From Escherichia phage Ge15, in the sequence record PP359696.1: a DNA stretch of 64,000 nt. The stretch is one strand, 5' to 3'. The notes under the pieces are model-generated. The model was not told the DNA's origin. It searched no databases and saw nothing but the letters and a program-made list of their open reading frames with translations. This document shows positions 23,979-30,274 of the stretch, piece by piece. The stretch's first letter is position 1. Every line of letters starts with the position of its first letter. Position numbers and translations under genes: made by a program.

Positions 23979-24021
23979 ACAACTATCGGCAATACTGCTG
24001 ATAATTAAAGAGGAAAATAAC

Positions 24022-24249
24022 ATGGCTAAAGTTGATATTGACATCGTTGATTTTGAGTATATTGAAGAGATTATTCGTAATCGTTATCCTGAGCTTAGTA
24101 TCACAAGCGTGCAAGATTCTAAGTTTTGGAGTATTCAAATCGTTATTGAAGGTCCTCTTGAAGACCTCACTCGCTTTATGGCTAATGAATATTGTGATGG
24201 TATGGATTCTGAAGACGCAGAATTTTACATGGGATTGATTGAACAATAA
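24022..24249 (+). CDS. hypothetical acidic protein (frd.3 position)
   Basis: 76-aa ORF from MAKVDIDIV with RBS agagg. Confidence 0.5.
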
Positions 24250-24292
24250 TTATCAAGGGGCTATTAAGCCCCTATCAAAATGAGGAAACGTA

Positions 24293-24673
24293 ATGTATAT
24301 TGGCAAAAAGTATGAACTTGTTCCAAGACTTATTGATACATTTATTAATTATAGCCCACGTTCTAATTCATCAATCGTTAAAGCTATTCGAGATAATGGC
24401 GGATGGTTTGAAGTTAAAGAAGTTTCCGTCGCTAATGGATATAAAGCAGTAAAACACATTGAATGCGCAAATGGAAAGCATTTTTACCTCAAAGATAGAC
24501 TTTTAGAAATTTGCGAAGATGAATTTCATTGTTTTCGTGAGTATAAAGAACCGACTTCTGAAGAAGATGAAGTCAAAGACAAGGTTTCTGGCGTAACAAA
24601 AATTCACTGCATTGTTGACGAAAACAATGTAGATGAAATCATTGAACTTTTGCAAAAAACTTTCAAAAAGTAG
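24293..24673 (+). CDS. hypothetical protein
   Basis: 126-aa ORF with RBS gagg. Confidence 0.55.
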   Translation: MYIGKKYELVPRLIDTFINYSPRSNSSIVKAIRDNGGWFEVKEVSVANGYKAVKHIECANGKHFYLKDRLLEICEDEFHCFREYKEPTSEEDEVKDKVSGVTKIHCIVDENNVDEIIELLQKTFKK

Positions 24674-24702
24674 TTTACAGTAGGGTAGTAGTGTGATACT
24701 AT
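24674..24702 (+). promoter_or_regulatory. T4-type early promoter
   Basis: gtttac 24674-24679, tactat 24697-24702. Confidence 0.5.
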
Positions 24703-24811
24703 TACCCTATCAAAACTAATGGAGAAAAGAAAATGTTCGCACCTTATATTATGGCAGCAGTTATGTTGGTCTGTTTATATCTTTTGATTAAAGCTTGCTA
24801 AGGAGAATAAA

Positions 24812-25054
24812 ATGAGATTACAACGCCAGAGCATCAAAGATTCAGAAGTTAGAGGTAAATGGTATTTTAATATCATCGGTAAAGATTCTGAACTTGTTGA
24901 AAAAGCTGAACACCTTTTACGCGATATGGGATGGGAAGATGAATGTGATAGATGCCCTCTTTATGAGGATGGAGAAAGCGCAGGATTCTGGATTTATCAT
25001 TCTGACGTTGATCAGTTTAAAGCTGATTGGAAAATTGTGAAAAAGTCTATTTGA
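24812..25054 (+). CDS. hypothetical protein
   Basis: 80-aa ORF with RBS aaggag. Confidence 0.5.
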   Translation: MRLQRQSIKDSEVRGKWYFNIIGKDSELVEKAEHLLRDMGWEDECDRCPLYEDGESAGFWIYHSDVDQFKADWKIVKKSI

Positions 25055-25064
25055 GGAAAATATT

Positions 25065-25397
25065 ATGTCTGACATTCATGTAACTGGAATTTCACAAGTA
25101 AATATTCGCTGCCAATTTAAAACTGTACCCGGGGTGACTCATATTACTTTATCACACGACCCATATTCTCGTGGAAGACAGTTAACTGGTGTAATTAAGT
25201 TTTTCGGTGGAATTGGTGGTAATGAATTTACTATAGGCGATGAAGAAATTGTTGGCTGTAAATTAAAAGTTCAGAAAGGCGTGTTAGAACTTTTTAGTGA
25301 TGAAGTTTTTGATGAAATCTCACGAGCAGTTAACAAAGGAATGTTAACGTTAATTAAAATGATTAAAGCTAGCGGATATGTTCCTGATCCTTTTTAA
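25065..25397 (+). CDS. hypothetical protein
   Basis: 110-aa ORF with RBS gagg. Confidence 0.5.
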   Translation: MSDIHVTGISQVNIRCQFKTVPGVTHITLSHDPYSRGRQLTGVIKFFGGIGGNEFTIGDEEIVGCKLKVQKGVLELFSDEVFDEISRAVNKGMLTLIKMIKASGYVPDPF

Positions 25398-25408
25398 TAG
25401 GAGATAAT

Positions 25409-26235
<827 letters not shown>

Positions 26236-26243
26236 AATAACGC

Positions 26244-26603
26244 GTGGCGGAAAATATGAATTTTAATTATTACCCTATTTTATTAGAAAAAGACGCGAAA
26301 CAGCCAAAGTGGCAGGGTCCTCAGTTTATTAAAGGTGTCTATCAATTAGTAGTTCCTAAAGACAAGATTTACAGCAGTTGTTTCACTGAATCCGCTTGCA
26401 GTATTTTCGGTAATAGTTCTCCGTATTGGAATTTTGACATAAAGCTGGATAGAAATATCGATATTTGGTTGAAAGCTATGGATATTGGTAATATCACGTT
26501 TGATGAGAATAATTATCATATTATTGGTCGCTTTTCCAAACGTGGCAAAGAATTATATTTCACACCTGAAATTGAGAGAAAATTTGATGCTAAACCGTAT
26601 TGA
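26244..26603 (+). CDS. hypothetical protein inserted between frd and td
   Basis: 119-aa ORF (possible start at MNFNYY, 26256); no recognisable motif. Confidence 0.5.
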   Translation: MAENMNFNYYPILLEKDAKQPKWQGPQFIKGVYQLVVPKDKIYSSCFTESACSIFGNSSPYWNFDIKLDRNIDIWLKAMDIGNITFDENNYHIIGRFSKRGKELYFTPEIERKFDAKPY

Positions 26604-26618
26604 TTATATAGGTGTTAA

Positions 26619-27479
26619 ATGAAACAATACCAAGATTTAATTAAAGACATTTTTGAAAATGGTTATGAAACCGATGATCGTACAGGCACAGGAACAATCG
26701 CTTTGTTCGGTACTAAATTGCGTTGGGATTTAACTAAAGGCTTTCCTGCAGTAACAACTAAAAAGCTCGCCTGGAACGCATGTATTGCTGAGCTTCTATG
26801 GTTTATTTCCGGTTCTACCAATGTTAATGATTTACGTCTTCGTACTCATGGTAGTCTTATTCAAGGTAAAACTATCTGGGATGACAATTATGAAAACCAA
26901 GCTAAAGACCTAGGATATCATAGTGGTGAACTTGGTCCAATTTATGGAAAACAGTGGCGTGATTTCGGTGGTGTGGATCAATTAGTTGAAACTATTGATC
27001 GTATTAAAAAATTACCAACTGATCGACGTCAAATCGTTTCAGCATGGAATCCAGCTGAAATCAATCAAATGGCATTACCGCCCTGTCATATGTTCTATCA
27101 GTTTAATGTGCGTAATGGTTATCTTGATTTACAATGGTACCAAAGAAGTGTAGATGTTTTCTTGGGATTGCCATTCAACATTGCCTCGTACGCTGCCTTG
27201 ACGCATATTGTGGCTAAGATGTGTAATCTTATCCCAGGAGATTTGATATTTTCTGGTGGTAATACTCACATCTATATGAATCATACTGAGCAATGTAAAG
27301 AAATTTTACGTCGTGAGCCTAAAGAACTATGTGAACTTAAAATTGATTGGCCTATAGAGTTTGGAAATTGTGACACCGAAACACAGCTTTACTGGTTAAC
27401 TGAATACATGAAACCGAAAGATTTTATCCTTGAAAATTATGAATCGCATCCAGCAATTAAAGGGAAAATGGCAATATGA
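26619..27479 (+). CDS. td: thymidylate synthase, uninterrupted
   Basis: 286-aa continuous ORF with full ThyA motifs (PPCH, DxxLGxPFN); no intron. Confidence 0.95.
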
Positions 27480-27739
27480 TTTTACGATTTAAAGATACTT
27501 CTGGCGTTGTTCTTTTTACACTTCCTAATCCAAGCGAGTTAGAAGTTCCAGGACCAGAACAGCCTATTATCATTTATGGCAAAAAATATTATACTCATAA
27601 AATGACTCGTGAGTATTTTGATAATAAAATTTCTACAGTTAAAACTTCTTCTGATTGTTATTATGATATTACTGTTTTAACGGAAAAACAATATGACGAA
27701 TTATTACCACGCGTGCCGTCTATGCCGGGTAGTGAATAA
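27476..27739 (+). CDS. hypothetical protein
   Basis: 87-aa ORF coupled to td. Confidence 0.45.
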
Positions 27740-28019
27740 ATATAAATCCGACTTTGATGTTAATATTCACCGTGGTACATTTTGGGGAAATTACGTCGGT
27801 AAAGATGCTGGCAGCCGGGAGGCTGCCATTGAATTATTCAAAAAAGATTTTATACGTCGAATTAAATCCGGAGAAATAACTAAAGCACATTTAGAGCCTT
27901 TACGTGGAATGAGGCTAGGATGCACATGTAAACCAAAGCCGTGTCATGGTGATATAATAGCTCATATAGTTAACCGATTGTTTAAAGACGATTTTCAAGT
28001 TGAGGACTTATGCAATTAA
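27693..28019 (+). CDS. hypothetical Cys-rich protein
   Basis: 108-aa ORF; start uncertain, overlaps the previous ORF. Confidence 0.4.
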
Positions 28020-30274
28020 TTAATGTTATCAAAAGTAGTGGTGTTTCTCAGAGCTTTGACCCGCAAAAAATTATTAAAGTTTTATCCTGGGCAGCTGAAG
28101 GAACATCTGTAGATCCTTATGAATTATATGAAAATATTAAATCATATCTCCGTGATGGAATGACCACTGATGACATTCAAACCATTGTAATTAAGGCTGC
28201 TGCGAATTCTATTTCAGTTGAAGAGCCTGATTATCAATACGTAGCCGCTCGCTGTTTAATGTTTGCTCTTCGTAAGCATGTTTACGGACAATATGAACCA
28301 CGTTCATTTATTGACCATATTTCTTACTGTGTAAATGAAGGTAAATACGACCCTGAATTATTGTCAAAATATTCAGCAGAAGAAATTACATTTTTAGAAT
28401 CAAAAATTAAGCACGAGCGGGATATGGAATTTACTTATTCCGGGGCGATGCAATTAAAAGAAAAATATCTCGTTAAAGATAAAACCACTGGTCAAATTTA
28501 TGAAACTCCGCAGTTTGCATTTATGACTATTGGAATGGCATTGCATCAAGATGAACCTGTTGATAGATTAAAACACGTTATTCGTTTTTATGAAGCAGTA
28601 TCTACTCGACAGATTTCATTGCCAACTCCTATTATGGCTGGCTGTCGTACTCCGACTCGACAGTTTAGTTCATGCGTTGTTATTGAGGCAGGTGATTCAT
28701 TAAAGTCTATCAATAAGGCTTCCGCTTCAATTGTTGAATATATCTCCAAACGCGCTGGAATTGGTATTAACGTTGGTATGATTCGTGCCGAAGGTTCTAA
28801 GATTGGCACAGGTGAAGTGCGTCATACTGGTGTTATTCCTTTTTGGAAACATTTTCAGACTGCTGTTAAATCATGCTCACAGGGTGGAATTCGTGGCGGC
28901 GCTGCTACTGCTTATTATCCTATTTGGCATTTGGAAGTTGAAAATCTTCTCGTTTTGAAAAATAACAAAGGTGTAGAAGAAAACCGTATCCGTCATATGG
29001 ATTATGGCGTTCAACTGAATGACCTAATGATGGAACGATTCGGAAAGAATGATTACATTACTTTGTTCAGTCCGCATGAAATGGGTGGTGAGCTTTATTA
29101 TTCTTATTTTAAAGACCAAGACCGTTTCCGTGAATTATATGAAGCCGCAGAAAAAGACCCTAATATTCGTAAAAAGCGTATTAAAGCCCGTGAACTGTTT
29201 GAATTACTCATGACTGAACGCTCAGGAACAGCAAGGATTTATGTACAGTTCATTGATAATACGAATAACTATACTCCATTTATTCGTGAAAAGGCACCTA
29301 TTCGTCAGAGTAACTTGTGCTGTGAAATTGCTATTCCAACAAATGATGTGAATAGTCCTGATGCTGAAATTGGATTGTGTACTCTCTCTGCATTTGTGTT
29401 AGATAACTTCGATTGGCAAGACCAAGATAAAATTAATGAATTAGCAGAAGTCCAAGTTCGTGCTCTTGATAATCTTTTAGATTACCAAGGATATCCAGTT
29501 CCTGAAGCAGAAAAAGCTAAAAAGCGTCGAAATCTTGGTGTAGGTGTTACTAACTATGCAGCTTGGCTGGCAAGTAATTTTGCTTCTTATGAAGATGCTA
29601 ACGATTTAACACATGAACTATTTGAGAGATTACAGTATGGACTCATCAAAGCATCCATTAAGCTCGCCAAAGAAAAAGGACCTTGCGAATATTATTCAGA
29701 CACTCGTTGGTCTCGAGGCGAATTACCTATCGACTGGTACAATAAAAAGATTGACCAAATCGCAGCTCCAAAATACGTTTGTGACTGGTCGGCGCTGCGG
29801 GAAGACCTTAAGCTCTTTGGCATCCGTAATAGCACATTATCAGCACTTATGCCATGTGAGTCATCTTCCCAAGTTTCTAACAGTACAAACGGTATCGAGC
29901 CTCCACGTGGACCAGTCTCTGTTAAAGAATCAAAAGAGGGTTCCTTTAATCAAGTCGTGCCCAATATTGAGCATAACATAGACCTCTATGATTATACGTG
30001 GAAATTAGCTAAAAAAGGTAATAAACCTTATCTTACGCAAGTAGCTATTATGCTTAAATGGGTGTGTCAATCAGCTTCAGCAAATACATATTATGACCCG
30101 CAGATTTTTCCAAAAGGAAAGGTTCCAATGTCAATAATGATTGATGACCTTTTGTATTTTTGGTATTTTGGCGGAAAAAATTTCTATTATCATAATACCC
30201 GTGACGGTTCTGGTACTGATGATTATGAAATAGAAACTCCAAAAGCTGAAGATTGTGCAGCGTGTAAATTGTAA
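28010..30274 (+). CDS. nrdA: ribonucleotide reductase large subunit (class Ia)
   Basis: 754-aa ORF, same length as T4 NrdA; ATP-cone and catalytic motifs. Confidence 0.95.
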   Translation: MQLINVIKSSGVSQSFDPQKIIKVLSWAAEGTSVDPYELYENIKSYLRDGMTTDDIQTIVIKAAANSISVEEPDYQYVAARCLMFALRKHVYGQYEPRSFIDHISYCVNEGKYDPELLSKYSAEEITFLESKIKHERDMEFTYSGAMQLKEKYLVKDKTTGQIYETPQFAFMTIGMALHQDEPVDRLKHVIRFYEAVSTRQISLPTPIMAGCRTPTRQFSSCVVIEAGDSLKSINKASASIVEYISKRAGIGINVGMIRAEGSKIGTGEVRHTGVIPFWKHFQTAVKSCSQGGIRGGAATAYYPIWHLEVENLLVLKNNKGVEENRIRHMDYGVQLNDLMMERFGKNDYITLFSPHEMGGELYYSYFKDQDRFRELYEAAEKDPNIRKKRIKARELFELLMTERSGTARIYVQFIDNTNNYTPFIREKAPIRQSNLCCEIAIPTNDVNSPDAEIGLCTLSAFVLDNFDWQDQDKINELAEVQVRALDNLLDYQGYPVPEAEKAKKRRNLGVGVTNYAAWLASNFASYEDANDLTHELFERLQYGLIKASIKLAKEKGPCEYYSDTRWSRGELPIDWYNKKIDQIAAPKYVCDWSALREDLKLFGIRNSTLSALMPCESSSQVSNSTNGIEPPRGPVSVKESKEGSFNQVVPNIEHNIDLYDYTWKLAKKGNKPYLTQVAIMLKWVCQSASANTYYDPQIFPKGKVPMSIMIDDLLYFWYFGGKNFYYHNTRDGSGTDDYEIETPKAEDCAACKL

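Follow-up and report, generated by a model that had tools for sequence, protein, structure and literature searches.

The 64,000-nucleotide stretch of Escherichia phage Ge15 analysed here (sequence record PP359696.1; hereafter the window) carries the genes for dihydrofolate reductase (DHFR; frd) and thymidylate synthase (TS; td). Between them lies a small open reading frame (ORF), which an earlier note, made from the sequence alone, had pointed out as an extra frame of 119 codons separating frd from td and ending 15 bp before the td ATG. The coordinates were confirmed (Table 1), and the 119-codon frame does exist, although its likely product is a shorter protein of 115 residues initiated at an internal ATG; the gene encoding this protein is referred to as X. 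The true start is almost certainly the ATG at 26256 rather than the GTG at 26244, since a matching start is annotated in REP1, RB32, T2 and other records, the exact 115-residue protein is widespread, the element GGCGGA lies just upstream, and the GTG is not conserved. In PTK and F2 its position is occupied by ACT, and GGCGGAAAATATG is kept there. The GC content of X is 31–35%, and both the overall value and that at third codon positions (GC3) agree with the neighbouring genes, in line with the phage-like composition that the note had described. The note had also seen no catalytic motif in the frame, and the domain scans agree: no Pfam domain was found in X, and scans of X and its homologues against Pfam, NCBIfam and PADLOC returned no matches.

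Table 1. Features of the frd-td region in the window and, where an L number is given, of loci retrieved from other phages.
Feature	Position	Strand	Remarks
frd, dihydrofolate reductase (193 aa), upstream neighbour	25654–26235	+	Pfam DHFR_1, E value 4.2e-19
Left 9-bp direct repeat TAAATGAAA	26229–26237	+	contains the frd stop TGA (26233–26235)
ORF in the frd-td interval	26244–26603	+	GTG start, 119 codons, TGA stop (26601–26603)
In-frame GTG extension of the X ORF	26244–26255	+	probably untranslated; contains GGCGGA
GGCGGA, Shine-Dalgarno-like element	26246–26251	+	4 nt upstream of ATG 26256
Gene X, 115 aa + stop	26256–26603	+	small basic beta-rich protein; PHROG 1928
X-td spacer, 15 bp	26604–26618	+	td ribosome-binding site AGGTG at 26610–26614
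Right 9-bp direct repeat TAAATGAAA	26616–26624	+	contains the td start codon (26619–26621)
td, thymidylate synthase (286 aa, intronless), downstream neighbour	26619–27479	+	Pfam Thymidylat_synt, E value 7e-96
Further TAAATGAAA sites	5851, 35126, 38989, 45294, 52962, 59221, 60674		examples of the 11 copies in the window
X/Y copies	L004 2317–2676; L005 2317–2673; L008 2287–2634; L009 2290–2643; L007 1556–2011		
Gene Z	Shigella phage Sf21 locus L010 2633–2839; L011 2633–2839; JS10 L012 about 2297–2503; L009 2648–2854		unannotated in JS10
Intron-bearing td	L020 4390–6266; L023 4393–6269		phages with identical X
frd-stop A insertion	L013 1150–1232; L017 1296–1378		PTK, F2; also JQD51
X-td spacer, other loci	L002 3451–3494; L015 1561–1605; L016 1705–1749		compared with the spacer of the window

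Codon-aligned comparisons with REP1, FriedrichMiescher, RB32, T2, PTK and F2 were used to estimate the ratio of non-synonymous to synonymous substitution (dN/dS). For X this ratio is 0–0.05 at a synonymous divergence (dS) of 0.08–0.99; the same comparisons gave 0.10–0.23 for frd and 0–0.23 for td. Between the window and T2, at a dS of 0.33, the X protein shows no amino acid difference (100% identity). By these alignments X is shown to be a real gene under very strong purifying selection and, judged from the same substitution counts, it is more tightly conserved among coliphages than either DHFR or TS. The gap separating frd from X shows no sigma-70-like promoter, and no terminator-like site was detected in 24200–28100. 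Neither the T4 late pattern (TATAAATA) nor a MotA box occurs close to X, and an Rfam scan of 24000–28500 yielded one sub-threshold chance match only. Since no promoter or terminator separates the genes, X can be assigned to the frd-td-nrdA early transcription unit, and would be transcribed together with these genes of nucleotide metabolism.

The results from profile comparison indicate that the product of X belongs to PHROG 1928 (E value 9.5e-36; residues 8–115 against profile positions 2–125/126). All 54 aligned relatives match this PHROG and no other. The exact 115-residue protein occurs in 637 blocks of a public assembly collection, and the six contexts that were read are all from T4-like phages with the gene between frd and td. 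A tblastn search of 50,697 phage records detected homologues in 554, of which 362, including T2, RB32, RB5, wV7 and PST, share at least 90% identity with X and 192 share less than 60%, the latter from phages of Klebsiella, Kosakonia, Edwardsiella, Erwinia, Citrobacter and others. An HMMER search of 1.84 billion cluster representatives gave 51 matches, about 95–150 residues in length except for four long proteins (345–2903 residues), which contain PKD, PEGA or CarboxypepD_reg repeats that accumulate weak scores and were rejected as artefacts. The family is small and, to the extent that its sources were traceable, confined to T4-like phages. The gene is already catalogued, being an annotated hypothetical gene in hundreds of genomes with a PHROG of its own. 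RB32ORF229c and its PHROG 1928 counterparts in T2, RB32, RB5, wV7, PST and several hundred further Tequatrovirus records are the same gene (98–100% amino acid identity) at the same position and between the same 9-bp repeats; the only difference in the window is that 29 bp are missing from the X-td spacer. No literature on the gene was found in our searches, and Petrov et al. (2010) make no mention of it. The product is mislabelled in MZ501066 (bas39_0071), MW749001, PV287714, PV204681 and MN580668, the names used being 'putative homing endonuclease', 'putative dihydrofolate reductase' and 'putative glucose-1-phosphate adenylyltransferase'; in PV204681 the product names around X are displaced by one gene. 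The homing-endonuclease and dihydrofolate-reductase labels in these GenBank records are unfounded.

Outside Tequatrovirus, the position of the gene was verified gene by gene at six diverged loci (two from Kanagawavirus, one each from Jiaodavirus, Roskildevirus, Moonvirus and a Klebsiella phage), at all of which a homologue directly follows frd, usually with a start and a stop that overlap the adjoining genes. Elsewhere it was taken from the features annotated at the matching region, which include frd or td in the Serratia, Proteus, Morganella and Providencia phage groups. Diverged homologues (about 25–46% identity) adjoin frd or td in every other enterobacterial T4-like group examined, i.e., the Mosigvirus-like phages, Kanagawavirus, Jiaodavirus, Moonvirus, Roskildevirus and the phages of Serratia, Proteus, Morganella and Providencia. 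Identity to the proteins of other genera is 31–46% for X, 45–50% for frd and 72–81% for td; the divergence of X thus tracks that of frd, which fits vertical descent with the flanking genes. The earlier note had supposed a small lineage-specific insertion. This is supported neither by the homologues in these other groups nor by the distribution within Tequatrovirus, where X is the majority state (about 360 records that share at least 90% identity). Its description of the ORF as extra relative to T4 holds, and X behaves as a dispensable accessory gene. It is most likely an ordinary functional gene of this kind, long carried between frd and td by T4-like enterobacterial phages. No paralogue was found elsewhere in the window.

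In T4 itself (NC_000866), frd occupies 145109–145690 and td ends at 145112, giving the 4-nt ATGA overlap that the earlier note had correctly stated, with no ORF between the two genes. The T4 slot is empty, and around it the 3' end of frd and the 5' end of td are 94–98% identical to the window (frd, 94% nucleotide identity). In the window, X lies between two direct copies of TAAATGAAA, and subtraction of 26229–26615 (387 bp) leaves a sequence identical to the T4 junction at every base. The loss of this segment from the T4 lineage, which is consistent with recombination between the two copies, would have produced the ATGA overlap of T4. The sequence TAAATGAAA occurs 11 times in the window, against 3.9 expected, and is a common stop-ATG-Lys gene junction; because it is so common, the repeats are regarded as microhomology and not as the signature of a mobile element. 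Such junctions offer a ready substrate for microhomology deletions between adjacent genes. PTK and F2, which are Mosigvirus-like, carry X together with both 9-bp repeats, and their flanking genes differ from those of the window by a dS of 0.51 for frd and 1.2–1.5 for td (1.5 for the td of PTK). The corresponding values for T4 are 0.21 and 0.70. Because the T4 flanks are closer to the window than are those of the X-bearing PTK, the fused junction is taken to be a derived deletion. Among the matches listed, the T4-type junction is present in only about 30 T4-like records, its carriers being T4 strains, T4T, RB55, RB59, vB_EcoM_112, G2133, FL12, HY03, SG1, JEP6 and G28.

On these sequence comparisons, the fused frd/td junction is most simply read as a deletion in the T4 lineage. 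Taken jointly, the identity of X as a PHROG 1928 accessory gene and its loss from T4 by the 387-bp deletion are given a probability of roughly 85%. The well-known frd/td overlap of T4 would then be a derived deletion and not the ancestral arrangement. A less probable reading is that the left repeat, which resembles the start of td over 12 nt, preserves the scar of a much older insertion. A search for a paralogue of X in T4 covered 1–78 kb and 119–169 kb (128 kb) and found none, the late structural genes at 78–119 kb lying outside the search. The value of these results as a discovery is small; the GenBank note on RB32ORF229c describes it as 'flanked by 9 bp repeat', so that the flanking repeat was already on record in the 2000s.

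Two other explanations of the ORF itself were weighed against its identity as a long-established gene. The first, an open frame arising by chance in non-coding spacer DNA, is ruled out by the substitution pattern. The GTG start from which the frame was first described, the weak ribosome-binding site and the lack of a domain match might have suggested such a frame, but a protein that is fully conserved at a dS of 0.33 with a dN/dS of at most 0.05, that shares motifs with homologues down to about 25% identity, and that gives a confident AlphaFold2 (AF2) model makes this a negligible prospect. The earlier note had also raised the idea of a homing-endonuclease remnant. In its wider form, this explanation holds that X is a remnant or free-standing homing endonuclease, or a recent mobile insertion brought by one with a 9-bp target duplication, and we regard it as very improbable. 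The label 'putative homing endonuclease' in FriedrichMiescher and other BASEL records speaks for it, as do the 9-bp flanking repeat, the presence/absence polymorphism and a G-[VI]-Y tripeptide resembling the opening half of the GIY-YIG motif. Among the homing endonucleases of T4, those of the GIY-YIG type (I-TevI, Seg) have in common with X a G-[VI]-Y-x-[LI] strand, free-standing ORFs at gene junctions, and presence/absence polymorphism. X differs from them, however, in having no domain match or catalytic residues, half the size and a different predicted fold, and in being under strong purifying selection at a fixed site. Pfam/NCBIfam scans of X and 13 homologues, read to E values up to 1–5, revealed no nuclease domain, whether GIY-YIG, HNH, LAGLIDADG or any other. 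The hhalign probability against I-TevI is 0.9%, with 12 residues of one strand aligned, and that against MobE is 0.1%. The second GIY-YIG half is missing or unconserved, as are the catalytic Arg/Glu and the His/Cys residues, and the dN/dS of X (0.03–0.05) is the opposite of what a decaying remnant would give. Occupation of the same locus in distant genera, with divergence that follows frd, is neither sporadic nor site-hopping. Furthermore, a census of homing-endonuclease genes in T4-related phages credits T2 with one such gene only, of the HNH class (PMC2993671), yet T2 carries X.

Within Tequatrovirus, the frd-td slot holds X, or an unrelated 68-residue gene Z (MSNKLKVKDVPNAMALFICRQMHQGPMTPKQ...), or is empty. 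Z fills exactly the same slot in about 135 records, mostly Tequatrovirus, with an ATGA overlap between the frd stop and its own start. Klebsiella phages carry a version with 79% identity and Phapecoctavirus one with 43%, from which it follows that Z moves between phage groups. Some records name its product 'flagellar biosynthesis protein'. Some phages with an identical X protein carry the td group I intron with I-TevI, whereas the td of the window is intronless. Since X is present with or without the intron, the two polymorphisms are independent.

In genera other than Tequatrovirus, X usually shares the frd-td interval with a tandem paralogue, Y. In Erwinia phage FBB1, the longer copy (Y) precedes X. 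The Y proteins, exemplified by QYN80407 of Kosakonia phage 305 and ORF-252 of Edwardsiella phage PEi26, have the motifs QKKW, HG[IL]Y and GRFxKxGxxxxF in common with X, and the similarity between X and Y reaches BLASTP E values down to 1e-12. Unlike X, Y carries ALVxQGxxPTIxxYKRNP, a segment of some 18 additional residues that follows the conserved Trp, and is devoid of the C-terminal tail. No copy of Y was detected in the window or in the Tequatrovirus loci examined.

The AF2 model of X, built from a 21-sequence alignment, has a predicted local distance difference test score (pLDDT) of 80 and a predicted template modelling score (pTM) of 0.75. It comprises strands at residues 8–12, 27–34, 48–50 and 62–64, a helix at 68–77, and further strands at 80–82, 86–96 and 99–104. 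In the 54-sequence alignment, W19, G27, Y29, G91, F93, K95, G97 and F102 are invariant or at least 90% conserved, and all are present in the protein of the window; the model places these residues in the first loop, on the second strand and in the last hairpin. The product of X is mildly basic (predicted isoelectric point 8.5), most of its relatives also being basic, and would be soluble and mostly beta-stranded, with a single helix; it contains one His, two Cys and no hydrophobic segment. Sequence searches of the PDB with single-sequence and 54-sequence profiles gave nothing below an E value of 0.27. Transthyretin/HIUase, a prealbumin-like beta-sandwich, recurred as a weak match and was rejected after an hhalign comparison (4.5% probability). 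A Foldseek search of the PDB with the model was not significant, its weak matches being RPA, Stn1, RMI and CusF, and structure matches in BFVD were only to uncharacterised proteins of T4-like phages, Aeromonas phages included. The OB-fold is a five-stranded closed beta-barrel with a helix between strands 3 and 4, and its ligands (single-stranded DNA, RNA or oligosaccharide) bind the face formed by strands 2–3 and the loops L12 and L45. Nucleic-acid-binding domains with this fold (HIN, RPA/Teb1, SSB, PriB) are among the nearest systems with which X was compared. The model suggests that X may be a small, non-catalytic, OB-like binding module, the fold assignment being weak.

Regarding function, we tentatively propose that X acts by binding and not by catalysis, as a dispensable partner of the nucleotide-precursor/replication machinery, with DHFR, TS or nucleic acid as its target. 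The proposal is made because of the fixed frd-td position, the overlapping stops and starts, the tandem paralogue and the OB-like fold; the overlaps, seen in several genera, imply translational coupling. W19, G27/Y29 and G91-R-F-x-K-x-G97 would form the ligand face of the OB-like barrel, and X, itself non-catalytic, would be co-expressed with DHFR and TS. We place this possibility slightly ahead of another, rather doubtful one, that X is a host-directed early protein (anti-defence or takeover) that would neutralise a host factor by binding it, the slot exchanging X, Z or no gene by recombination in the flanks. The three alleles at exactly equal boundaries within one genus would suit such a protein, as would the occurrence of Z, at 43% identity, in the unrelated Phapecoctavirus, which is typical of mobile accessory genes. 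X is near-invariant among coliphages and only 31–46% identical in phages of other hosts, and it is small, non-catalytic and dispensable, the early regions of T4 that were searched containing no compensating paralogue. A host-directed role is harder to reconcile with a position that is fixed across every T4-like group examined and with divergence in step with frd, since known anti-defence genes usually turn over faster. Moreover, X shows no similarity to characterised proteins, PADLOC, which covers defence proteins, gave no matches, and no literature was found to support this role.

Taking both paralogues together, we speculate that X and Y may be an unrecognised non-catalytic component of the thymidylate-synthesis module, serving either as an adaptor of DHFR/TS to the deoxynucleoside triphosphate (dNTP) synthetase/replication complex or as a host-specific counter-defence factor. 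This reading is rather unlikely. If it were true, the X/Y beta-barrel would be a fold without a close solved relative, and 70 years of T4 genetics would have missed the family only through the deletion in T4. Being more tightly conserved among coliphages than DHFR or TS, yet without an assigned role because the model phage lacks it, X is a reasonable and cheap target for a knockout in T2 or RB32.

Several smaller variations were seen around the gene. The frd stop also opens a two-codon frame, ATG AAA TAA at 26233–26241, which repeats the ATG AAA that begins td (ATG AAA CAA); this frame could be left over from an earlier overlap of frd and td, or could have arisen by chance. In an alignment with FriedrichMiescher, RB32 and T2, the X-td spacer of most X-bearing Tequatroviruses holds 29 bases, tagcttcataaaatgtattataatttat, that the window and REP1 lack. 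This segment carries TGTATTATAAT, an extended -10-like element. The edges of the missing segment in the window and REP1 show TTAT microhomology, and Phaginator, judged by match length, also lacks it. In PTK, F2 and JQD51, the run that precedes the frd stop is longer by one A, which abolishes the TGA; frd consequently extends for another 12 codons and runs past the start of X, with an overlap of 11 nt. Upstream, the window contains two more small ORFs between frd.1 and frd, at 25065–25397 (110 residues) and 25409–25654 (81 residues). A 110-residue ORF at the equivalent position in a relative matches Pfam DUF7247, while the 81-residue ORF matches no Pfam family. T4 has neither ORF, and its frd.1-frd gap measures 71 bp.
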